A program made the position numbers and the translations under genes. A DNA stretch of 64,000 bases, taken from sequence record PZ452610.1, one strand, 5' to 3'. Of this stretch, positions 8,405 through 26,167 are shown one piece after another. The stretch comes from a phage. How positions within the stretch are numbered: position 1 is the stretch's first letter; every line of letters begins with the position of its first letter. Below the pieces are notes generated by a model. The model did no database searches and was not told the origin of the DNA. It was given only the letters and a program-made list of their open reading frames with translations.

Positions 8405-9013
8405 TCAGTAACTGACAATAGACAGATTCCAGATTGTATAACGTCCATCTTGAATAATAGAATCTACACGCAGTGTAGTCCCTATAGGGAGCATAAATTC
8501 ACATTCGTCAGATATAAGTCTAGCATTAGACCGTCTTGTCGCTTCAGGGAAAGCTCCATTGAACTCACAAGATGGCGCAGCCAGAATCATGTTAAGCATA
8601 TGTTCACGGAAGTTGAAAGCAAATGGTGCATCTTTGATGCAGAACATATTAAATGTTCCGTAAAAATTATACGAAGCAAAGTTACGTGCTACACCGAACA
8701 CTGGACTGAAGCTCATTACTCTGTCAAATTTAATAATACTACCAATGCCTTTATCATCAAGTGTAGCCATAGTTTTCTTAGAGATTCCACGATACATTGT
8801 CTCAGGAACAGAAGACGACCAATTTCTACGAACAATTGCACTTAAATCTTTTTGGATGCTATCAGGCTTGTTTTCCATACACTGCCATAGTACACTTTGT
8901 TCAATGTCACTGAATTGCTCATCGATTTTGTACTGAAGCATATCTTGATAATCCGGGCATTGAGCACGACGAACCATTTCTTCAATTTCACACTCGTTAT
9001 ACGGCATAAACAT
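8405..9013 (-). CDS. modA: ADP-ribosyltransferase ModA-like
   Basis: 202 aa; R (YRGIS) ... S (SFSP) ... E-x-E (DECEF) arrangement of R-S-E ARTs; paralog of next gene; T4 map position. Confidence 0.6.
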   Translation of the reverse strand: MFMPYNECEIEEMVRRAQCPDYQDMLQYKIDEQFSDIEQSVLWQCMENKPDSIQKDLSAIVRRNWSSSVPETMYRGISKKTMATLDDKGIGSIIKFDRVMSFSPVFGVARNFASYNFYGTFNMFCIKDAPFAFNFREHMLNMILAAPSCEFNGAFPEATRRSNARLISDECEFMLPIGTTLRVDSIIQDGRYTIWNLSIVSY

Positions 9014-12470: not shown

Positions 12471-12668
12471 ATGTTTAAACTTCCATCGTTAATCAACGCT
12501 ATTAAAGGCAATAAAAAGAAAACTGCTATCGCTGCAATAGTTGTAGGTGGCATTATTTCATGGAACTTCGGGATTGCACCATTGTTAGTTGCCCATGGTA
12601 TTATAGTTCCTTCTGTTCCATTGGATACTGTAGTTGATTTGGCCTTTGCTATTATAGGGCTTGTTTAA
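12471..12668 (+). CDS. Small hydrophobic protein, 65 aa; only plus-strand gene candidate
   Basis: ATG preceded by strong SD AAGGAG at 5-nt spacing; predicted TM segment; stop overlaps the stop of convergent gene 61. Confidence 0.45.
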   Translation: MFKLPSLINAIKGNKKKTAIAAIVVGGIISWNFGIAPLLVAHGIIVPSVPLDTVVDLAFAIIGLV

Positions 12669-13687
12669 ATCTTCGAATAACGAGATAATCTCATTTTAGC
12701 ATGCAACCCACTTGAAATATTCTGTTTCATATATTCTAAAATTTCTTGTGGTGTTGCATTTTCTTTCATTACCATATCATTCACATCCTTTGATCTCCAT
12801 GGAGCTCGATCCCAGAACATGACACGTTCGCCTGCATCAACTAATCGCTTCATGCGAGCTATAGTATCTGGATGCCTAGGTTCATTATCCATTACCCATA
12901 CCCGACGTTCTTTAAATGGTACCACATCTAAATCTATTGAGCCGCCTGTAATAGCGATTGCATTGGGTATGAATAAACTATCAATAGGGCCTTCCATTAC
13001 CCAGACGTCTCCTTCCTTAACACGTTCAACACCATAAATTTTTGTTGCAGACTCAAACGCTTTAATAGTGATATATTTCTGAGGAGCATCTTTGCGAAGT
13101 GCACGTCCTTGAAATGACTCAGCCTTCCCGTCTTTATTAAAAATAGGAATCACTAAACGTGGTTCGGGAATCTCTTTCTTATACGTACCAGGTTGAATCT
13201 TGTTGACCAATTTAGGCCATTCTAATGTGAACCATAATCTGTTCCACGATTCTTTAGGAATACACCGAGACTTAACATATTTCACAATAGGATGCTCTTC
13301 AGGCAGCTTGTCCAGACGAGAACAAGACGGCAAAGAATTTATAGTCTTTTTCTCCGGTTCTGGTTTATGTTCAGGAACCTTTTCAATCTTTGGTTCCATT
13401 CTAGCTTTTTCTTTACGAACTTCCATTAGATATTCGCGATAAAGCTCTTCATCATACTCTTTTAAGTATCCAGAAATTGTATTGTGGTATTGACAGTTAT
13501 AGCAATGCACATTACCTGGAGTACCACCGTAATACCATCCGCGAGCTTTCATTGCATCTGTCTGGGAGTCGCCACAAACTGGACAACGAAACGTTAATTT
13601 AAATGTGCTTGAATTATTGATTTGTCTAAAACGAGGGAGGTGAGAAAACGCACGATAAGCAAATTCATTATCTATCCATTCAGCCAT
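12665..13687 (-). CDS. 61: DNA primase gp61
   Basis: 340 aa; N-terminal zinc ribbon (CPVCGDS...CYNCQYH), primase core; SD GGAGAAT before ATG 13687. Confidence 0.95.
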   Translation of the reverse strand: MAEWIDNEFAYRAFSHLPRFRQINNSSTFKLTFRCPVCGDSQTDAMKARGWYYGGTPGNVHCYNCQYHNTISGYLKEYDEELYREYLMEVRKEKARMEPKIEKVPEHKPEPEKKTINSLPSCSRLDKLPEEHPIVKYVKSRCIPKESWNRLWFTLEWPKLVNKIQPGTYKKEIPEPRLVIPIFNKDGKAESFQGRALRKDAPQKYITIKAFESATKIYGVERVKEGDVWVMEGPIDSLFIPNAIAITGGSIDLDVVPFKERRVWVMDNEPRHPDTIARMKRLVDAGERVMFWDRAPWRSKDVNDMVMKENATPQEILEYMKQNISSGLHAKMRLSRYSKI

Positions 13688-13726
13688 AGTATTCTCCAGA
13701 GGCCTTAAATTAATAAGGCCATCATA

Positions 13727-14221
13727 TCACAACTTATTAATATTTACTTTAATTCGCTTTCTTTTCTTGGAAGGAATTTGTTCTGGACCTTTATTTACGA
13801 CTGCACCTGTAGTTGTTCCTGATGCAATAGCTTGAGGGCTGCCACCTGAATCACCAGCCACCATATCCTCAAATAAAGGGAGTTCTTTAAATATTTCTTT
13901 CTGTTGTTCTTCTGTAATGTTATAGCGGGATGCTACGGCACTCCAGGCAGACATCATTGAGGCCATTCCATTAAGACCTGGAACAGTGCTCATCATTCGC
14001 TTCATTGAACGAACTGAAGCATGAAAAGGTGTATAAGCCGCTTTCTCTTCAGGAGTGGAAGGACGTTTAAGAACACTTCCACGTTCATCGATGATTTTGG
14101 CTTCGTATGCTTTCCATTCGGTAAAAGGTTTTTGCATTAGTCGAATAAACTTATATGCATAAACAGAATCTATTGCAGTGTTAATAATACCCATAGGTAC
14201 CTCCTGAGTATATTTAATCAA
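13727..14221 (-). CDS. Hypothetical protein, 164 aa (61.1 position)
   Basis: ORF; basic C-terminal tail KKRKRIKVNINKL. Confidence 0.5.
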   Translation of the reverse strand: MIKYTQEVPMGIINTAIDSVYAYKFIRLMQKPFTEWKAYEAKIIDERGSVLKRPSTPEEKAAYTPFHASVRSMKRMMSTVPGLNGMASMMSAWSAVASRYNITEEQQKEIFKELPLFEDMVAGDSGGSPQAIASGTTTGAVVNKGPEQIPSKKRKRIKVNINKL

Positions 14222-14411
14222 TTACAAAGATTGCTTTGTCACCATTTATATCTGTGACTTCATATGTAGTGCCTTCATACTGTGGAATATTCCAAATTAC
14301 ACCGTCATTAGCTTTTACGCTAATATGGCATTGGTGTTTTGAAACAACTTCATAATCTTCAAAACTTGTAAAAACACTAATTTTAGAACCAGTGCAAATT
14401 GCAGTAGTCAT
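14214..14411 (-). CDS. Hypothetical protein, 65 aa
   Basis: ORF in operon context. Confidence 0.4.
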   Translation of the reverse strand: MTTAICTGSKISVFTSFEDYEVVSKHQCHISVKANDGVIWNIPQYEGTTYEVTDINGDKAIFVID

Positions 14412-14412
14412 T

Positions 14413-15072
14413 TTAACCTCGATTCATAAATGCATTAAATATTTGGTCATCAACAGAAATTTCTAATTCGACTTCAATTGCTTCGGCCTTTTCTTCAGGT
14501 GGTAATTCGTATCCACACACTACAATTTTTTCATCGATATCAAAATATACAGAAGCAATACGATTAATGTTATTTTCAGTTAAGTCCAAATCAACATCAA
14601 CATCTTTTTGGCCTACACTTAGAGGATAACTAATACGGGTTATTTTATTATCTTTAACAAAGAGTCCACCAACATACTCTGTACTACGTTTGAAGTTTAC
14701 ACGTTTCCGAATTGAAAGATATGATACATCTTTACCGTGAGCTCGGCTCATAGGACATAATGAATAGCTAGAATAAGAGATGTCAAATCCTACACCTTCA
14801 ATATGAGCCAACGCGTCATGATTAAACCAATTATAATCATATGCCAAATCCATTATATTGTAATATGTGAAAGGCACAGGATTAACATCATATGTTGTAC
14901 CTTTAAAATCTGCCCAGGCAACGATTTCGTTATCTTTAACAATTACAAAAATTACACCAATATGGTATCCTTTATTATTTTCATTCGGCGTTATATTATA
15001 ACATTGTGCATTAGGAAATTTACCATATTTAAATGGTGCGTTTTTGTGCATATAATAAATCATATTATTCAC
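14413..15072 (-). CDS. Hypothetical protein, 219 aa (61.2 position; candidate AdfA-like anti-DarT factor by synteny only)
   Basis: Position between 61 and sp as for T4 61.2; no motif recognised. Confidence 0.5.
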   Translation of the reverse strand: MNNMIYYMHKNAPFKYGKFPNAQCYNITPNENNKGYHIGVIFVIVKDNEIVAWADFKGTTYDVNPVPFTYYNIMDLAYDYNWFNHDALAHIEGVGFDISYSSYSLCPMSRAHGKDVSYLSIRKRVNFKRSTEYVGGLFVKDNKITRISYPLSVGQKDVDVDLDLTENNINRIASVYFDIDEKIVVCGYELPPEEKAEAIEVELEISVDDQIFNAFMNRG

Positions 15073-15358
15073 CTGTGATTTCGGTTACGATATCTTTGTT
15101 ATCGAAATTAGGGTCACAATACAAAACATAGTTGTACTGCATGATACCGCCAGACTTAAGTTGTTCAACAACTTTATTAACCATATTAGGACGGTCTCGT
15201 TTAGTGATGTTCATGATATCAGAGAAGATTTGTTGTTCAACATCTTCTTGATTTGCAGTCATTGACCACTCACAGAGGTCTTTATCATAACCTGCCGTAA
15301 CTGGAGCCGGTGCACATGATACTGCAAGTAAGATTGCTGCCAATGATAACTTTTTCAT
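15065..15358 (-). CDS. sp: Spackle-like periplasmic protein
   Basis: 97 aa with N-terminal signal peptide MKKLSLAAILLAVSCAPAP; length and position match T4 sp (61.3). Confidence 0.55.
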   Translation of the reverse strand: MKKLSLAAILLAVSCAPAPVTAGYDKDLCEWSMTANQEDVEQQIFSDIMNITKRDRPNMVNKVVEQLKSGGIMQYNYVLYCDPNFDNKDIVTEITGE

Positions 15359-15387
15359 TTTAACTCCTTAGTTGATTTGATAGGACT

Positions 15388-15417
15388 ACTATACTATAGT
15401 CCATCTATAATGTAAAC
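15388..15417 (-). promoter_or_regulatory. Early promoter (GTTTAC - 18 nt - TATAGT)
   Basis: Minus strand GTTTACATTATAGATGGACTATAGTATAGT then SD AAGGAG. Confidence 0.45.
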
Positions 15418-15421
15418 AAGT

Positions 15422-15670
15422 TTATTCTTTTTCGCGAATAATAATTACTTGTTGAGGCTGCTGAGCCGATTTCTTTTCGGCAACGATAGACCAAATTAAA
15501 GTTCCAATCCAACCAATCATCGTCCAGTTAAAGAGTAAAGATACAAAGAAGATTGCTGTTGTGCTTTTTGTGCCACGAATAAGTGCGATTACCCAAGGCA
15601 ACATGTAAATGATGATTGAACCAATACCTGCGATTAAAACTGCTACTGAACTAGCTACGAATAATTCCAT
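15422..15670 (-). CDS. Imm_superinfect-family small membrane protein (superinfection immunity-like)
   Basis: 82 aa, two TM segments; motif AIFFVSLLFNWTMIGWIGTLIW resembles the GWxGIGWI signature of the superinfection-immunity family. Confidence 0.55.
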   Translation of the reverse strand: MELFVASSVAVLIAGIGSIIIYMLPWVIALIRGTKSTTAIFFVSLLFNWTMIGWIGTLIWSIVAEKKSAQQPQQVIIIREKE

Positions 15671-15697
15671 GTTAATTTCCTCTTGATTTGTTATGTT

Positions 15698-15727
15698 TAT
15701 AATATCTTGTTTTAACTTTGGCGTAAA
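15698..15727 (-). promoter_or_regulatory. Early promoter (GTTTAC - 18 nt - TATTAT)
   Basis: Minus strand GTTTACGCCAAAGTTAAAACAAGATATTAT. Confidence 0.5.
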
Positions 15728-15731
15728 CCAA

Positions 15732-16100
15732 TTAATTAAATTTGTTTAAACGTTCAATACACTGGACGTAGTTATTCGCGATTTGTTTCTGGGTAGGCTC
15801 TTTACCAGTTGTTTCAACATAACGAATGAATGCGATTTCAGTAGCCTGTAGACAATGTTCTTTAACGCGTTGTTCTTTTGACAATGCTACAGTATCAGAG
15901 TCACGATAACGTTGAGCATGGGCATCAGCTTGAATCATTCGATTACCTACAGTAACCGGGTCTTCCACTTCAACTTTAGGTTGGTCGTACTGTTTAACAT
16001 TCGGATTGTAAATCAATTGGCCAACGTTATTAGGGATAAAGCCATGGGCACCACATCCGGTTAATCCAAATACCATTGCTAAAGCGATTAATTTTTTCAT
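15732..16100 (-). CDS. Putative lipoprotein, 122 aa
   Basis: Signal peptide with lipobox LTGC (MKKLIALAMVFGLTGCGA). Confidence 0.55.
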   Translation of the reverse strand: MKKLIALAMVFGLTGCGAHGFIPNNVGQLIYNPNVKQYDQPKVEVEDPVTVGNRMIQADAHAQRYRDSDTVALSKEQRVKEHCLQATEIAFIRYVETTGKEPTQKQIANNYVQCIERLNKFN

Positions 16101-16128
16101 TTCAATTTCCTCTGTAGTTGATAGAAAG

Positions 16129-16158
16129 ATAGTAACACAGTATGTGGGGCTTGTAAAC
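16129..16158 (-). promoter_or_regulatory. Early promoter (GTTTAC - 18 nt - TACTAT)
   Basis: Minus strand GTTTACAAGCCCCACATACTGTGTTACTAT. Confidence 0.45.
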
Positions 16159-16171
16159 AGTTATTTTAAAA

Positions 16172-16381
16172 TTATCGAAAATCTGCTTCGAAAACTTTCT
16201 CGTCATTAACAAATGCTTTAACTAATGCTTTGTTCACTTCAGCAAGTTGTACCGTAACCCACTCGATTTCTTCGCGATCACCTGATAACATGATATCTTT
16301 AGTGAACATCTCACCGCTTTTAAACCAACCGATAAAAGTAACTTTAGTTAATTTGCTCATATTTCCTCGCAAAATGCCCAT
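16172..16381 (-). CDS. Hypothetical protein, 69 aa
   Basis: ORF; likely true start at internal Met MSKLTKV. Confidence 0.4.
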   Translation of the reverse strand: MGILRGNMSKLTKVTFIGWFKSGEMFTKDIMLSGDREEIEWVTVQLAEVNKALVKAFVNDEKVFEADFR

Positions 16382-16674
16382 TCAGCGTGATAAACTGTAG
16401 CGCCTTTAGTATCATTCATTTGAACTACATCTACCGGAGAAATTACTCGATAGAGACGTGGTTCACCTCCATAAGAGCGTGCTGCTCGTCCTGCATAAAT
16501 CTTTGCTAAACCGATATCTTCAGTAAAGAATACACGATCCAAGTTTTTCTTACGTCCAGTTTCAGACAGAACTCCTGTTTCTTCAGGAGGACAAAGCATG
16601 TTTTCGATGTTAGCTGAACTACTTGAACCGTGATAAAAAATCTTAAATTCTGCTTTACAATCAATGGTTTTCAT
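16357..16674 (-). CDS. Hypothetical protein, 105 aa, with H-G-S ... IYAG motif (possible minimal ART-like fold)
   Basis: ATG 16674 with SD GGAG; FYHGSSS followed about 40 aa later by GLAKIYAGRAA. Confidence 0.5.
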   Translation of the reverse strand: MKTIDCKAEFKIFYHGSSSSANIENMLCPPEETGVLSETGRKKNLDRVFFTEDIGLAKIYAGRAARSYGGEPRLYRVISPVDVVQMNDTKGATVYHAEWAFCEEI

Positions 16675-16700
16675 TTTGTTCTCCGGTAGTTGATAGGTCT

Positions 16701-16729
16701 ATAATAACACAACTACCGGAGAAGTAAAC
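16701..16729 (-). promoter_or_regulatory. Early promoter (GTTTAC - 17 nt - TATTAT) with spacer/SD inverted repeat
   Basis: Spacer CTCCGGTAGTTG is the exact complement of leader CAACTACCGGAG, which contains the SD. Confidence 0.6.
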
Positions 16730-17104
16730 TTAAAAACGTAATTTAGATATATCTGCGTTGATTTCGTTTTGGTTTGCGTCGTATGCAATTAAACGAACCG
16801 CTTTAGATGGGTCATTCAATGCATAGAAATGATGGAACATTGCTCGAACGATATCACCATTTACGAGTTCTACCTGGATAGGAGAACCTTTTTCGAGTTG
16901 GAAATGTTCATAAGCTTTGATGGTTCGCAGATAATCAAGTTTTTGATTTCCAGCTCCAACAATTTGTACGATACGTTTGCCCATGTTTTCCATACGAGAT
17001 ACAATAGTTTTAGGAGCAAGAATAACGTAGGTTGCCAGTGGAGAAACTACTTCAACAGTTGTGTTTTCGGTGATTGCAGTAAAAATTGCTTGAGACATAT
17101 TCAT
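16730..17104 (-). CDS. Hypothetical protein, 124 aa
   Basis: ATG with SD AAGAGGAAAAC; own early promoter. Confidence 0.55.
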   Translation of the reverse strand: MNMSQAIFTAITENTTVEVVSPLATYVILAPKTIVSRMENMGKRIVQIVGAGNQKLDYLRTIKAYEHFQLEKGSPIQVELVNGDIVRAMFHHFYALNDPSKAVRLIAYDANQNEINADISKLRF

Positions 17105-17164
17105 AATGTTTTCCTCTTGGTTGGTGTAAGTACATCATATCATGCCTAGAGGAAGATGTAAACC

Positions 17165-17195
17165 CAGAAAGGAGACCGAAGTCTCCTTTTTATTA
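17165..17195 (-). terminator. Hairpin GGAGAC-TTCG-GTCTCC after gene 41
   Basis: Perfect 6-7 bp stem with UUCG loop; T-rich flank on both strands. Confidence 0.55.
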
Positions 17196-18635
17196 AAATT
17201 TTAACTCATTGGCTAAGCTATCTAGGTCAGCACGTGTTGCTTTGGCTTTACCTACGCGTTCCGTACGATTCACCTCTGCCTGACGCATCTGAGCACCTGC
17301 GTTTTCATTTACTGTGTTAGGTGTGTTCATGCCTTCTTGCTCAATCTCAATCCATTTCTGGTTGCCTTTACGTACACCCATCAGGAATTTATTCCACTTA
17401 TTCTTATCGCCGTATCGTGATTTGATTTGTTTGATAAGTTGTTGTTCAGCTTGTGCAAGTTCTTCGGTTTCAATTACAGCCAACATGAAATCCGCCGTTG
17501 CTGGTAAACCTGCTGATTCTGCAATATCACTCATGTTCATGTCTGAAGCATCCCATGCTGCACGTCCTACTTGAGCTGCAGTCCATAGAACTGTTTCAGA
17601 TTCTACTGCTAATGCACGAAGTTCTTCTGCGATAGCTTTAACTAATGTGTAGCTATTTTCAGTGTAAACTCTGATACGACAAGACCCACAAATACCTAAG
17701 TAATCAACCATGATTACAGATGGTACAAAGTTCTTCTTAAGTTTTAACTCATTAAGCAATGCACGAAATGTATTAGCATTAGCTCCACCAGTAGGATACT
17801 GTTTAACTACTAAACGTCCTAATGTTGTTTTTGAACGCCATTTTTCCATCTTGGCTTTATATTCAGCATAAGATACGTTACCATCATCAATATCATCAAG
17901 TGATACGTCAAGCATGTTTGCATCTATACGCTTAGCACAAACTTCTTCAGCCATTTCCATAGAAATATAAAGAACGTTATGACCTGTTTGAAGATAATCT
18001 GCAGCAAGTGAACAAAGGCCTAAAGATTTACCAACGTTAACACCGGCCATTAAAACGTTCAGTGTACCTGTTTCTGCACCACCTTTGGTGATTTTATTCA
18101 GAATGTTTAATTTGAACGGGACCTTACGTGCTTTATTTAGATAAGAAAGCCAGCGTGCTTCATAATCTTCCATCCAGTCATGGCCAACATAACTATCAAA
18201 CGAAATTGAAAGTGCTTGACGCATAATATCAGGAATAGCTCCTACGTCAGGCATTTTCTTGTTACGTTGTTCTGGAGGTAGTTCAGCATTAGACTGAATC
18301 TCAATGATTTTGGATGTAGCATTATACATCGCTTTTTGCTGGACATATTTCTCAGTTTCTTTAACCAACCATTCATGGTCTTCAGGAGTATCAGCCAATT
18401 TTTCAATTAGGTCTGAAGTTCCTTTATATTCGGCTTCAGTTAAAGAACTGTTATCTAAAGCCACCTTTAACGCATTGATAGATGGCATTGCATTATATTC
18501 GTTAACGTGGCTCTTTATAATTTTAAAGACATTTTTTGCCGGTCCACGCTCAAAATACTCAGAATCCATATAAGGCCAGACCTTAGAAAAATAAGCCTGG
18601 TCATATACGAGATGAGACAAAATAATTTCTACCAC
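17193..18635 (-). CDS. 41: Replicative DNA helicase gp41 (DnaB family)
   Basis: 480 aa; MVEIILSHLVYDQAYFSKVWPYMD... and Walker A GVNVGKS match T4 gp41; start codon appears to be GTG. Confidence 0.95.
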   Translation of the reverse strand: MVEIILSHLVYDQAYFSKVWPYMDSEYFERGPAKNVFKIIKSHVNEYNAMPSINALKVALDNSSLTEAEYKGTSDLIEKLADTPEDHEWLVKETEKYVQQKAMYNATSKIIEIQSNAELPPEQRNKKMPDVGAIPDIMRQALSISFDSYVGHDWMEDYEARWLSYLNKARKVPFKLNILNKITKGGAETGTLNVLMAGVNVGKSLGLCSLAADYLQTGHNVLYISMEMAEEVCAKRIDANMLDVSLDDIDDGNVSYAEYKAKMEKWRSKTTLGRLVVKQYPTGGANANTFRALLNELKLKKNFVPSVIMVDYLGICGSCRIRVYTENSYTLVKAIAEELRALAVESETVLWTAAQVGRAAWDASDMNMSDIAESAGLPATADFMLAVIETEELAQAEQQLIKQIKSRYGDKNKWNKFLMGVRKGNQKWIEIEQEGMNTPNTVNENAGAQMRQAEVNRTERVGKAKATRADLDSLANELKF

Positions 18636-23910: not shown

Positions 23911-24312
23911 TTATAGATTCGGTTTATATGATTTAAATGTTTCGAATTCGCCTTTATTCATAAGAGCTTTGAATTCGTCAGGACGCATAGCTTTGTCGTC
24001 GATAATCCAATCATATACTGGTTTATGTGTTAGCAAATTATGGTACTTCAAACCAATGTTTTCCAAGTTCTGAATCAGACTTGGGAGAATGTCAATTGCT
24101 ATACGACCAGGACCTACTGACTTCATACCGCGAGCAGTGTAAAGCGTTATGGTATGCCCTGCATCATACAGGGCATTAATAGCAGTCACCATTTCGACGT
24201 CTGGTTTGAAGTTCACGTAATCACGATTGTTATTCCACTCTGTTATACAATCATCGACATCAAAACAAAGATTAAGCATGTTTTCTACACGGTGCATTAG
24301 ATTCGTTCCCAT
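23911..24312 (-). CDS. HAD-superfamily phosphatase-like protein, 133 aa
   Basis: N-terminal FDVDDCIT (HAD motif I-like), TLYTARG (motif II), KPVYDWIIDD (motifs III/IV). Confidence 0.6.
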   Translation of the reverse strand: MGTNLMHRVENMLNLCFDVDDCITEWNNNRDYVNFKPDVEMVTAINALYDAGHTITLYTARGMKSVGPGRIAIDILPSLIQNLENIGLKYHNLLTHKPVYDWIIDDKAMRPDEFKALMNKGEFETFKSYKPNL

Positions 24313-25982
24313 TGATGAGTGATATCGCCACCGATTGGACGATAAGAAACACCAGTTTCTTTATCAGTTAGTACCCATTTACCAGGATTTTTTGTAATCA
24401 GAGTAGCCGTTACAGGTTCTGCTACGTCATAACTAATAGAGCCGTCCTGAAGTACACGGCCCATGTTACGTAATTGCTTAGTCAGAAGTTCCATACCTTT
24501 ATAATATGCGGCTACCGCTTTAAGTGGATTATTCTTGAAATAACCACCTAATGCAATCCAGATAATTGCTACAGCCAAATGATGATACTCGTTAAACGAA
24601 CTCATCTTTCCATATTTGTAAACTAATGGATTGATGTTAATAGTCACATTACAAGTTGTTTCGTCAATAGTAAACTGTCCCCAGGTCGGATTAGCGTTGA
24701 ATTCATCATAACCTGAAACAGCATAAAGCACTTTAGCTTCATCATACAATTTTGGCCCGTAAATCTTGGTTTCGCCAAAATATCCACGAGGGTCGATAAA
24801 CTTGACTTCGCCGTTATCAGTAATCATAGTATTACTGAAGTTCGGGTCACCGTGAATAACAGAGTACTGTCCCTGAGAACGGGTATGATAACGAATAAGA
24901 TGTTCTAAAGCTTGCTTCAGCATTGGCTTCAGACGTCCAATCTTAGTGTAGTTCACGTGTGTGATTTTACCAAATGAATCAATCAATGGCTGAATGCTTT
25001 CACAACGATCAATAACTTTCGTATAGAACTCTTTAGTGAAATCACGGCGAACAGTTTCAGGACTTACAAAATAAGTGTCTGTGCTGAATTTCAGTGCATC
25101 TAAAATTGCATCAACAATTTGTGGACGAGCAAGACTTGATTTGGATTTAATATATTCAAATGCTGGCTTACCTTTAATACGTTCCATTTCAAAATTATTT
25201 TCATTTACCGAAACTAACTGAGGAACTGAATCTGATTTCACTTTCAAATACCATGAAATCTCATCTTTTTGAAGAGCTCGACCTTGTTCGGTTAACGCGA
25301 ATTTAGTTACAGTTTCTTCGCCAATTTCAACTGCATTAAAACTACGATTAAGTTCACGAACTTCATGAGCTTTTTCAAGTTTAGGCATATCACCTAAATC
25401 AATTAGATTCATAAGCTCTGATTTATTGAATGCACTGCCGTAAAGGAATTCTACGAAATCACGTCCTTTGCAGTATTCATGAATTTCCTCATCAGTAGAA
25501 CCCATGTAGAATTCCCAGTCTTTGAACTGATAAATTCCTACAACATTACCGCCTGTTGAACCTACGTTAGTGATATTTTCACCATCGAAATTATATCGAC
25601 ATTCATCACCCTTAACATAGATTGCGTTAACATTCCAAGACCATGAACCAAAATCAGGAATAATATCACACCAGTTAACAATTACGTTATGGCCATCTAA
25701 ATCTTTGTATAATTTAGCAAGAGCATAAGCAGAACCATACGCTTCATCAACTGTACGAATAGTCACATTGAACCCTTCTTGCTCGCAATAAGCTCGAACA
25801 GTTTCAGCAAATTTTGAATGAACTACTACAATAATTTCATCTGCGCCAAGGTCAGAATAAATTGTATACAAATTGCTCAGAATAGTGTCTTGTTTATAGT
25901 TAACAAGAACTTTTGGAATATGATGCGTTATTGGATACAAACGAGTTGCCAGTCCAGCACCAAGAATAACAGCTTTTTTCAT
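24297..25982 (-). CDS. Bifunctional sugar-1-phosphate nucleotidyltransferase / APH-type sugar kinase
   Basis: 561 aa; N-terminus KAVILGAGLATRLYPITHHIPKVLV (NTP-transferase G-x-G-x-R-L); C-terminus HGDPNFSNTMITDNGEVKFIDPRGYFG (APH/ChoK catalytic loop). Confidence 0.75.
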   Translation of the reverse strand: MKKAVILGAGLATRLYPITHHIPKVLVNYKQDTILSNLYTIYSDLGADEIIVVVHSKFAETVRAYCEQEGFNVTIRTVDEAYGSAYALAKLYKDLDGHNVIVNWCDIIPDFGSWSWNVNAIYVKGDECRYNFDGENITNVGSTGGNVVGIYQFKDWEFYMGSTDEEIHEYCKGRDFVEFLYGSAFNKSELMNLIDLGDMPKLEKAHEVRELNRSFNAVEIGEETVTKFALTEQGRALQKDEISWYLKVKSDSVPQLVSVNENNFEMERIKGKPAFEYIKSKSSLARPQIVDAILDALKFSTDTYFVSPETVRRDFTKEFYTKVIDRCESIQPLIDSFGKITHVNYTKIGRLKPMLKQALEHLIRYHTRSQGQYSVIHGDPNFSNTMITDNGEVKFIDPRGYFGETKIYGPKLYDEAKVLYAVSGYDEFNANPTWGQFTIDETTCNVTININPLVYKYGKMSSFNEYHHLAVAIIWIALGGYFKNNPLKAVAAYYKGMELLTKQLRNMGRVLQDGSISYDVAEPVTATLITKNPGKWVLTDKETGVSYRPIGGDITHQWERI

Positions 25983-26023: not shown

Positions 26024-26167
26024 CTAGTTAAAGCATTCATACTTTGCTTGTAGTCCAATCATAATCCATCCAATTACAAGTGTTGGAATCATTACTGGAG
26101 CCGTTAAGCTCCAGTAGATAGTCATGACAAGCATCAATAGTAAAAGTCCTATTGTTATTGCTTTCAT
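26024..26167 (-). CDS. Possible small membrane peptide, 47 aa (not in ORF track)
   Basis: ATG overlaps the TGA of the SIS gene (ATGA coupling); MKAITIGLLLLMLVMTIYW... hydrophobic. Confidence 0.3.
   Translation of the reverse strand: MKAITIGLLLLMLVMTIYWSLTAPVMIPTLVIGWIMIGLQAKYECFN

Follow-up and report, generated by a model that had tools for sequence, protein, structure and literature searches.

The interval between genes 61 and 41 of a T4-like phage as a probable RB69-type version of a known hyperplastic region

Background

The interval examined here lies between the genes of the DNA primase (61) and the replicative helicase (41), at positions 13727-17104 of a 64,000-nucleotide stretch of phage DNA (record PZ452610.1, hereafter the window). 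The closest described systems are the corresponding loci of the phages RB69 and T4. In RB69 (AY303349 / NC_004928), the annotation from 61 to 41 has since 2003 listed 61.1, ORF032c, ORF033c, 61.2, sp, imm, imm.1, 61.4, dmd, ORF040c and ORF041c, and imm and imm.1 are therefore already annotated at this position. In T4, the order is 61, 61.1, 61.2, sp, 61.4, dmd and 41, and imm.1-imm is found between 43 and 42. The dmd/tifA/adfA region of T4 has been named the "anti-TA island", after toxin-antitoxin (TA) systems (PMC9391042; Srikant, Guegler and Laub 2022). Dmd (61.5) is an antitoxin-like inhibitor of RnlA/LsoA, and TifA (61.4) is an inhibitor of ToxN, the RB69 version being the more potent one (PMC9391042). 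AdfA (61.2) is reported to bind and neutralise DarT1 when its residue 164 is a histidine, but not when this residue is an arginine (PMC11257639). Sp (61.3) from T4 is a periplasmic inhibitor of the gp5 tail lysozyme, known from a Spackle-gp5 complex (PMC7677548).

More generally, hyperplastic regions have been described in T4-like phages together with the PeSL-mediated shuffling of their genes (PMC4122927). In the PeSL layout, a stem-loop lies upstream of a TTTACW-N17-TAYWAT promoter, which is followed by a Shine-Dalgarno sequence and an ATG (PMC4122927).

Gene content of the 61-41 interval

Nine consecutive open reading frames (ORFs), all of them coding on the minus strand, fill the interval from gp61 to gp41 (Table 1), and the RefSeq annotation NC_041863 holds the identical nine genes. 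Their order from 41 to 61 is ORF041c, ORF040c, dmd, imm.1, imm, sp, adfA (61.2), ORF033c and the long form of 61.1. At the DNA level, positions 13600-17200 of the window do not differ from the Escherichia coli O157 typing phages 3, 6 and 13 (100% identity); some 150 further Mosigvirus genomes, RB69 among them (~98%), match at 98-99%. The genes, order and strand are those of RB69, from which the window differs by the lack of 61.4/tifA, a single frame in place of 61.1 and ORF032c and a few amino-acid changes. The T4 anti-TA island (dmd-tifA-sp-adfA-61.1) has the same flanks, orientation and early expression, and shares dmd, sp, adfA and 61.1 with the window at 57-70% protein identity; however, it counts five genes, includes tifA, lacks ORF040c, ORF041c, ORF033c and imm/imm.1, and encodes an AdfA with H164 where the window has R164.

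This comparison leads us to regard the interval, with a probability of about 0.88, as the form that the hyperplastic region bounded by the replication genes 41 and 61 takes in RB69-type phages (Mosigvirus). The dominant known theme of its genes is toxin-antitoxin neutralisation together with superinfection exclusion. Both the arrangement and the idea of a hot spot are already published; the finding is correct but ordinary and, as a whole, adds nothing to the published annotation, since earlier records cover the gene set as well as the relocation of imm/imm.1 and the idea of a 41-61 counter-defence island.

The family assignments agree with this reading: the Pfam matches to AdfA, T4_Spackle, Imm_superinfect, DUF5481 and Dmd all beat the curated cut-offs, and the PHROGs assignments are concordant. 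An earlier note, made from the letters of the window, had counted nine small genes in the interval, among them a Spackle-like protein, an Imm_superinfect-type protein and a lipobox lipoprotein; the count is confirmed by both the ORF listing and NC_041863, and the three calls are correct. For the unassigned proteins of the interval, NCBIfam and PADLOC scans returned nothing meaningful, an Rfam scan of the interval gave a chance-level match only, and a literature search under the RB69 ORF names found nothing. The guanine-cytosine (GC) content per gene is 0.32-0.39 against 0.372 for the window, without compositional anomaly.

The interval is variable among T4-like phages. It holds four genes in phiR1-RT, five in T4, seven in JS10, seven in PEi20 (the homing endonuclease mobE among them), nine in this window, ten in RB69 and 15 in Acinetobacter phage Apostate. 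The variation is not evenly spread: 61.1 stays beside 61, the ADP-ribosyltransferase (ART)-like gene ORF040c is the first one after 41 in three genera, and the middle of the interval varies. Such a distribution raises the question of whether the interval is no more than a place between two essential genes where stray genes are tolerated, so that the co-location of defence genes would be coincidental. The range of 4 to 15 genes is what one would expect in that case, and so are the presence of an ORFan, that of mobE in PEi20 and the restriction of tifA to only ~45% of Mosigvirus records. Nevertheless, several genera have Sp and three experimentally characterised anti-toxin genes (dmd, tifA and adfA) grouped in this interval, polyvalent proteins join the ART domain of ORF040c to domains of the counter-defence type, and the density of early promoters in the interval is ~5 times the window average, all of which makes a coincidence unlikely and favors the counter-defence region of the RB69 type.

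Table 1 Coordinates of the 61-41 interval, its flanks and associated elements in the window
Feature	Position	Strand	Remarks
gp61 DNA primase, conserved flank	12665..13687	-	340 aa; 99% identical to RB69 gp61, 74% to T4 gp61
61.1, long form	13727..14221	-	155 aa counted from ATG at 14194
ORF033c homologue	14214..14411	-	65 aa
adfA (gene 61.2), anti-DarT factor A, R164 allele	14413..15072	-	PF23813
sp (gene 61.3), Spackle	15065..15358	-	PF25676
Early-promoter-like element upstream of sp	15388..15417	-	GTTTACA-17-TATAGT; small hairpin overlaps, -15 kcal/mol, z -2.25
imm, superinfection immunity membrane protein	15422..15670	-	PF14373
Early-promoter-like element upstream of imm	15699..15728	-	GTTTACG-17-TATTAT; absent in T4
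imm.1, predicted lipoprotein	15732..16100	-	PF17578 (DUF5481)
imm.1 promoter (consensus match)	16129..16158	-	TGTTTACA-17-TACTAT; homologous to T4 imm.1 promoter
Junction of 206-bp tifA indel vs RB69	16170..16171		directly after dmd stop codon
dmd (gene 61.5)	16172..16381	-	PF17587; likely start ATG at 16360
ORF040c homologue	16357..16674	-	105 aa; Arr/KptA-like ADP-ribosyltransferase fold, stand-alone
Early-promoter-like element before ORF040c	16675..16729	-	GTTTACT-16-TATTAT inside 14-bp hairpin
ORF041c homologue	16730..17104	-	124 aa; Mosigvirus-restricted ORFan
Stem-loop and early promoter, PeSL-like	17105..17192	-	9-bp UUCG hairpin, then GTTTACA-17-TATGAT
gp41 replicative helicase, conserved flank	17193..18635	-	480 aa; 99.6% identical to RB69 gp41, 85% to T4
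Footprint of ancestral imm site, 47-aa hydrophobic ORF	26024..26167	-	homologous to T4 "imm-42 intercistronic region"

Anti-toxin and superinfection-exclusion genes

The AdfA protein matches its Pfam family with an E-value of 1.1e-119 (397.8 bits, cut-off 27) and is 98% identical to RB69 gp61.2 and 68% to the T4 protein. At RB69 position 164 it has an arginine (NINRIAS; ENNINRIASVY), as wild-type RB69 does, where T4 has a histidine. Although a member of the family, the AdfA of the window is therefore predicted, from this residue, not to neutralise the DarT1 that the H164 form neutralises. Dmd (7.2e-21, 74.7 bits, cut-off 27) is 97% identical to the RB69 protein and 57% to that of T4. The RB69 tifA gene, which lies between dmd and imm.1, is absent here: in the pairwise alignment, a 206-bp segment with exactly that gene is missing. 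Both the presence and the absence of tifA are common in Mosigvirus, as the RB69-type TifA is found in 69 phage records out of ~155 with a Mosigvirus-type Imm.1 or ORF040c. Because tifA is missing and adfA is of the R164 type, this phage is predicted to be more sensitive to ToxIN than RB69 and as sensitive to DarTG1 as RB69, a prediction that matters for the anticipation of host range in typing or therapy phages.

Three genes of the interval are related to superinfection exclusion. Sp matches T4_Spackle over residues 1-96 of 96 (1.1e-42, 145 bits, cut-off 27) and aligns with T4 Sp at 66% identity over 97 amino acids without gaps, its N-terminal export signal (MKKLSLAAILLAVSCAPAPVTA|GYD) included. 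Cys15, Cys29 and Cys81 are kept, and with them the positions of the Cys29-Cys81 disulfide pair of T4 Sp. By orthology, the Sp of the window would inhibit the gp5 tail lysozyme. Imm matches Imm_superinfect (1.5e-15, 57.2 bits, gathering score 27.9) as well as phrog_1039, "immunity to superinfection" (9.9e-31). It is 65-66% identical to T4 Imm and has two hydrophobic spans, Kyte-Doolittle windows of 19 residues above 1.6 starting at residues 1-16 and 40-41. Transferred from the T4 orthologue, its presumed role would be to block the DNA entry of superinfecting T-even phages.

Imm.1 matches DUF5481 (3.7e-09, 37.3 bits, cut-off 27). Its N-terminus, MKKLIALAMVFGLTGC, contains the lipobox LTGC, which conforms to the tested pattern [LVI][ASTVI][GAS]C; that of T4 Imm.1, MKIAILVIALGLAGC, contains LAGC. 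The two proteins are only 32-35% identical, whereas the Imm proteins are ~65% identical. Homologues of Imm.1 are confined to Mosigvirus and Tequatrovirus records, and a word-index search returned 2-3 clusters, too few for a useful alignment. The AlphaFold (AF2) model is of low confidence (mean pLDDT 60), and shows a disordered tether followed, with a pLDDT of ~87, by a helical hairpin at the C-terminus. Two C-terminal cysteines are common to the Imm.1 of the window, the protein P0124 and T4 Imm.1.

The earlier note had seen in the interval a hotspot for envelope-targeted superinfection-exclusion and host-interaction genes. The hotspot stands, given the variable interval, and so do the three envelope products. 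Yet the other six of the nine products are not envelope proteins, and AdfA and Dmd had been overlooked; with these two counted, cytoplasmic counter-defence describes the island at least as well as superinfection exclusion does. One could still maintain that superinfection exclusion at the envelope is what the interval is mainly for, its products acting in the periplasm or membranes against other phages. Sp, Imm and Imm.1 are indeed adjacent, each with its own promoter-like element, and Imm and Imm.1 are found as a pair in two distinct genomic settings. Nevertheless, a signal peptide, a lipobox or transmembrane segments occur in only three of the nine products, AdfA and Dmd are cytoplasmic anti-toxin factors, ORF040c has the fold of a soluble enzyme, and Sp is the sole envelope protein of the same interval in T4. 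A primarily envelope-directed island is thus improbable, and a joint theme of toxin neutralisation and superinfection exclusion describes the RB69-type region better.

Relocation of imm.1-imm

In the window, imm.1-imm sits between dmd and sp. The locus was compared with that of T4, and neither its content nor its order is the same; the displacement of imm, which had been suspected from the sequence, is real, with one copy per genome lying between 43 and 42 in T4 and between dmd and sp here. The window and RB69 have an arabinosyl-hydroxymethylcytosine (ara-hmC) module, not imm.1-imm, in the interval from 43 to uvsX. The presence of this module between 43 and uvsX has been described (PMC6024577).

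Several observations bear on how this situation arose. The search for Imm gave one match per phage record (1041 places in 1041 records), the window having a single imm, and this gene has 69% DNA identity with its T4 counterpart. AACTGTTTACAAG ... CTATCAACTAC occurs both in the spacer upstream of imm.1 and in the T4 spacer between 43 and imm.1, so that the imm.1 promoter appears to have moved along with the genes. A footprint was left at the old site: the T4 imm-42 spacer matches positions 26034-26146 of the window (blastn, 71% over 115 nt, E 5.6e-09), just behind the GutQ-like gene now found after 43, where there is no imm. In the RB69 annotation, the corresponding ORF054c is described as "similar to T4 42-imm intercistronic region". 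Together, the single Imm per record, the identity of the imm DNA, the shared promoter spacer and the footprint show that imm.1-imm was relocated, and neither duplicated nor acquired from outside. Compared with the T4 locus, the same two genes are present in the same order, with a lipobox and transmembrane segments in both loci and imm.1 promoters that are homologous, but the spacer between imm.1 and imm is of 61 nt with a promoter-like element here and of 11 nt in T4.

The idea that imm/imm.1 are an extra, horizontally acquired paralogous copy instead of the relocated T4-type locus could draw on the divergence of Imm.1, far under the identity of its neighbours, and on the occurrence of Imm_superinfect proteins in unrelated phages, but it is hard to reconcile with exactly one Imm match in each record, an old site beside 43 that keeps the T4 imm-42 spacer and small ORF without imm, an imm DNA that is 69% identical and an imm.1 promoter that is homologous to their T4 counterparts, and an unremarkable GC content, and is very improbable. 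A duplicated imm was likewise discarded, as there is one match per genome, and so was an acquisition from outside the T4-like group, as the composition is ordinary and all homologues except those of the ART domain come from T4-like phages.

As for the direction of the relocation, the Imm homologues of the sampled Tequatrovirus records lie at T4-like coordinates, the one of the Salmonella phages STP4-a and KM16 overlaps the annotated gene 42 (dCMP hydroxymethylase/thymidylate synthase), and the imm of IME08, at ~27.4 kb, fits the T4-like site by coordinate alone. With T4-like sites in these other phages, the Mosigvirus position appears to be the derived one. A cassette made up of the promoter, imm.1 and imm would then have moved from beside 43 into the 41-61 interval, and the ara-hmC module would have taken the old site. 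The most likely route, we infer, would be a recombination between repeated early-promoter/5'-untranslated-region elements, i.e., a shuffling of the PeSL type. The imm.1-imm pair behaves like a mobile unit of two genes that brings its own promoter, which argues that the Imm.1 lipoprotein works with Imm.

The footprint also includes a small frame. The 47-aa ORF, MKAITIGLLLLMLVMTIYWSLTAPVMIPTLVIGWIMIGLQAKYECFN, has an ATG that overlaps the stop codon of the GutQ-like gene. Its 49-aa homologue in T4 (T4 locus ~8725-8876, minus strand) has an ATG that overlaps the stop of imm and is unannotated in NC_000866.4. Judging from these two sequences, the pair looks like a conserved, overlooked gene for a small membrane protein.

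Early promoters, hairpins and transcription units

Early promoters were sought as the T4-type motif GTTTAC-N16-18-TAnnnT, and what follows concerns consensus matches, not mapped transcription starts. The 64-kb window contains 21 copies of this motif on the minus strand and one on the plus strand. Five of them (15417, 15728, 16158, 16729 and 17163) fall into the 3.4-kb interval, where 1.1 would be expected (Poisson P ~0.006), one in each intergenic gap of more than 50 nt, and all five gaps also have a Shine-Dalgarno sequence and an ATG after the motif. The proposal that several of these genes have early promoters of their own agrees with these matches. The remaining junctions are overlaps of 8-25 nt or gaps of 1 nt, so that the genes probably form five transcription units, as far as these signals tell: ORF041c; ORF040c-dmd; imm.1; imm; and sp-adfA-ORF033c-61.1.

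The gap between ORF041c and ORF040c contains a hairpin. This structure (16672-16732, minus strand) has 14 bp, -23 kcal/mol and a z-score of -5.8, matched by none of 200 shuffles; its loop holds the -10 element and its 3' arm the Shine-Dalgarno sequence of ORF040c. Known T4 regulatory hairpins provide a model for how such a structure may be read. The arrangement suggests that only promoter-proximal transcripts could be translated, whereas read-through transcripts would hide the ribosome-binding site. Another hairpin was observed in the gap between 61.1 and gene 61 (13688-13726, minus strand), where a 7-bp GC-rich stem (GGCCUUA...UAAGGCC, -12 kcal/mol, z -2.8) lies just upstream of the Shine-Dalgarno sequence of gene 61.

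As in the PeSL cassettes (Arbiol 2010; Comeau, Arbiol and Krisch 2014, PMC4122927), repeated promoters are clustered here where relatives differ in gene content. In contrast to them, the full layout is found only in the gap between 41 and ORF041c (17105-17192); at 16675-16729 and 15359-15421 the hairpins overlap the -10 element, and the two other gaps are without a hairpin.

Proposed mode of action

If the interval is of the RB69 type, it would work as a string of small early genes, most of them with their own sigma-70-type early promoter, each of which acts independently within the first minutes of infection. A first group would shield the infected cell from secondary infection: Sp would act against the gp5 tail lysozyme of incoming phages in the periplasm, Imm would block DNA transfer at the inner membrane, and Imm.1 would be the lipid-anchored periplasmic partner of Imm. 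The other group would disarm host abortive-infection toxins, Dmd being directed against RnlA/LsoA and AdfA, here as its R164 allele, against a DarT-type toxin, while TifA (against ToxN) is missing in this phage.

Several points weigh against this interpretation. The five promoters are consensus matches only, and every activity has been carried over from orthologues in T4 or RB69, with identities of 57-98% and, for Imm.1, of only 32-35%. For four products, 61.1, ORF033c, ORF041c and Imm.1, a place in an island of defence genes is only putative. The long 61.1 and ORF040c, whose positions are kept across distant genera, may be conserved genes rather than accessory ones. Finally, the PeSL route for the move of imm is circumstantial, since the canonical layout is restricted to the gap between 41 and ORF041c.

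An ADP-ribosyltransferase-like protein, ORF040c

The one modestly new point of this analysis is the assignment of ORF040c to the ARTs together with its very strong conservation. The protein has an Arr-type ART fold, in a minimal Arr/KptA-like form. A few exceptions aside, its fold matches include a long run of ART toxins, PARPs, RES toxins and DarT, and the top ranks of Foldseek are occupied by the same ART families. In a viral structure library, the best non-trivial match, at 34% identity and E 2e-07, is a phage protein of 94 aa that bears the name "Rifampin ADP-ribosyl transferase". At the sequence level, ORF040c has no match in Pfam (Arr-ms included), NCBIfam or PADLOC, nor in the PDB, searched both with the single sequence and with a profile.

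Homologues of ORF040c are abundant and highly alike. In 30 diverse sequences, H15, G16, R41, F49, T51, D53, Y60, R63 and E103 are invariant. The reference for the catalytic residues is the H-Y-[EDQ] clade of ARTs (Arr/KptA type), characterized by a histidine, an aromatic and an acidic residue; with roles assigned by eye against Arr, H15 and E103 would be the histidine and the acidic residue, the strand-2 aromatic of ORF040c is the invariant Phe49, not a tyrosine, and the invariant Y60 lies on the next helix. The comparators of ORF040c are Arr, AcrF11 (an anti-CRISPR ADP-ribosyltransferase) and the NAD-binding lobe of KptA/Tpt1. ORF040c shares with them the YHG[ST] motif at strand 1 and a C-terminal glutamate that is invariant, and its small size and stand-alone form recall AcrF11, likewise a phage protein. 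It is nevertheless shorter than Arr (rifampin ADP-ribosyltransferase), with 105 aa against ~140 aa, and lacks the N-lobe of KptA.

A profile search of 1.84 billion representatives recovered 221 proteins, many of them long and multidomain, with the domain at or near the C-terminus. Ten of these matches were scanned, and three (P0131, P0138 and P0155), which match the ORF040c profile at 1e-23 or better, pass Pfam Arr-ms (PF12120) on exactly the matched residues (26.9-29.4 bits, cut-off 25). The ORF040c-type domain was also seen in the giant multidomain proteins P0161, P0171 and P0185. Its domain partners include ART-PolyVal with NUDIX, a lambda-type portal with a 2H/Acb1-like domain, and GNAT with Toprim, combinations that we take to be the architecture of "polyvalent proteins" from phages and plasmids. 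In a few GenBank records, homologues of ORF040c already bear the name "putative ADP-ribosyl transferase".

The gene is found in 610 phage records; Tequatrovirus is not represented among the listed matches or leading organism names, and the T4 locus examined does not contain it. In JS10, phiR1-RT and PEi20 it comes immediately after 41, a place that it occupies in several genera of the Tevenvirinae; in Apostate it is found inside the 41-61 interval. Between genera, ORF040c is better conserved than its essential neighbours gp41 and gp61: its identity is 89.5% with JS10 (68% for gp41, 62% for gp61), 85% with phiR1-RT (66% and 61%), 79% with PEi20 (64% and 62%) and 70.5% with Apostate (62.5% and 53%).

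ORF040c would, we infer, be a further host-directed or counter-defence enzyme. A bolder version of this idea, in which it is an active stand-alone Arr-type ADP-ribosyltransferase and an unrecognised counter-defence or host-takeover enzyme of T4-like phages whose gene has been lost by T4, is tentative and on balance doubtful; the loss in T4 would explain why the gene has never been studied. As a strongly conserved mini-ADP-ribosyltransferase that is absent from T4, ORF040c is in any case a concrete candidate for a new phage effector.

Other genes of the interval

The 61.1 protein matches phrog_2086 (1.2e-73), and its C-terminal 50 aa match phrog_1823, the T4 gp61.1 type. The T4 protein is only 54 aa long and aligns to the C-terminus of the window 61.1 at 70-75% identity; it is a remnant of the 155-aa form. 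The long form also adjoins gene 61 in phiR1-RT and Apostate. The RB69 record splits into 61.1 and ORF032c what is a single uninterrupted ORF in the window.

ORF033c matches phrog_3249 (3.2e-33), with no match in Pfam, NCBIfam or PADLOC. It is 100% identical to RB69 ORF033c and 69% to the ORF at the same position in JS10. A word-index search of 5.8 billion proteins recovered only two clusters for ORF041c, which also matches phrog_10668; no homologue of this gene was found in T4, JS10, phiR1-RT, PEi20 or Apostate.

Outside the interval, a comparable case of split annotation was observed at 24297-25982 (minus strand), where a single ORF of 561 aa corresponds to RB69 ORF053c and ORF052c together. 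Thomas et al. predicted that the split between these two RB69 ORFs is a sequencing artefact (PMC6024577), a suggestion with which the single ORF of the window agrees.

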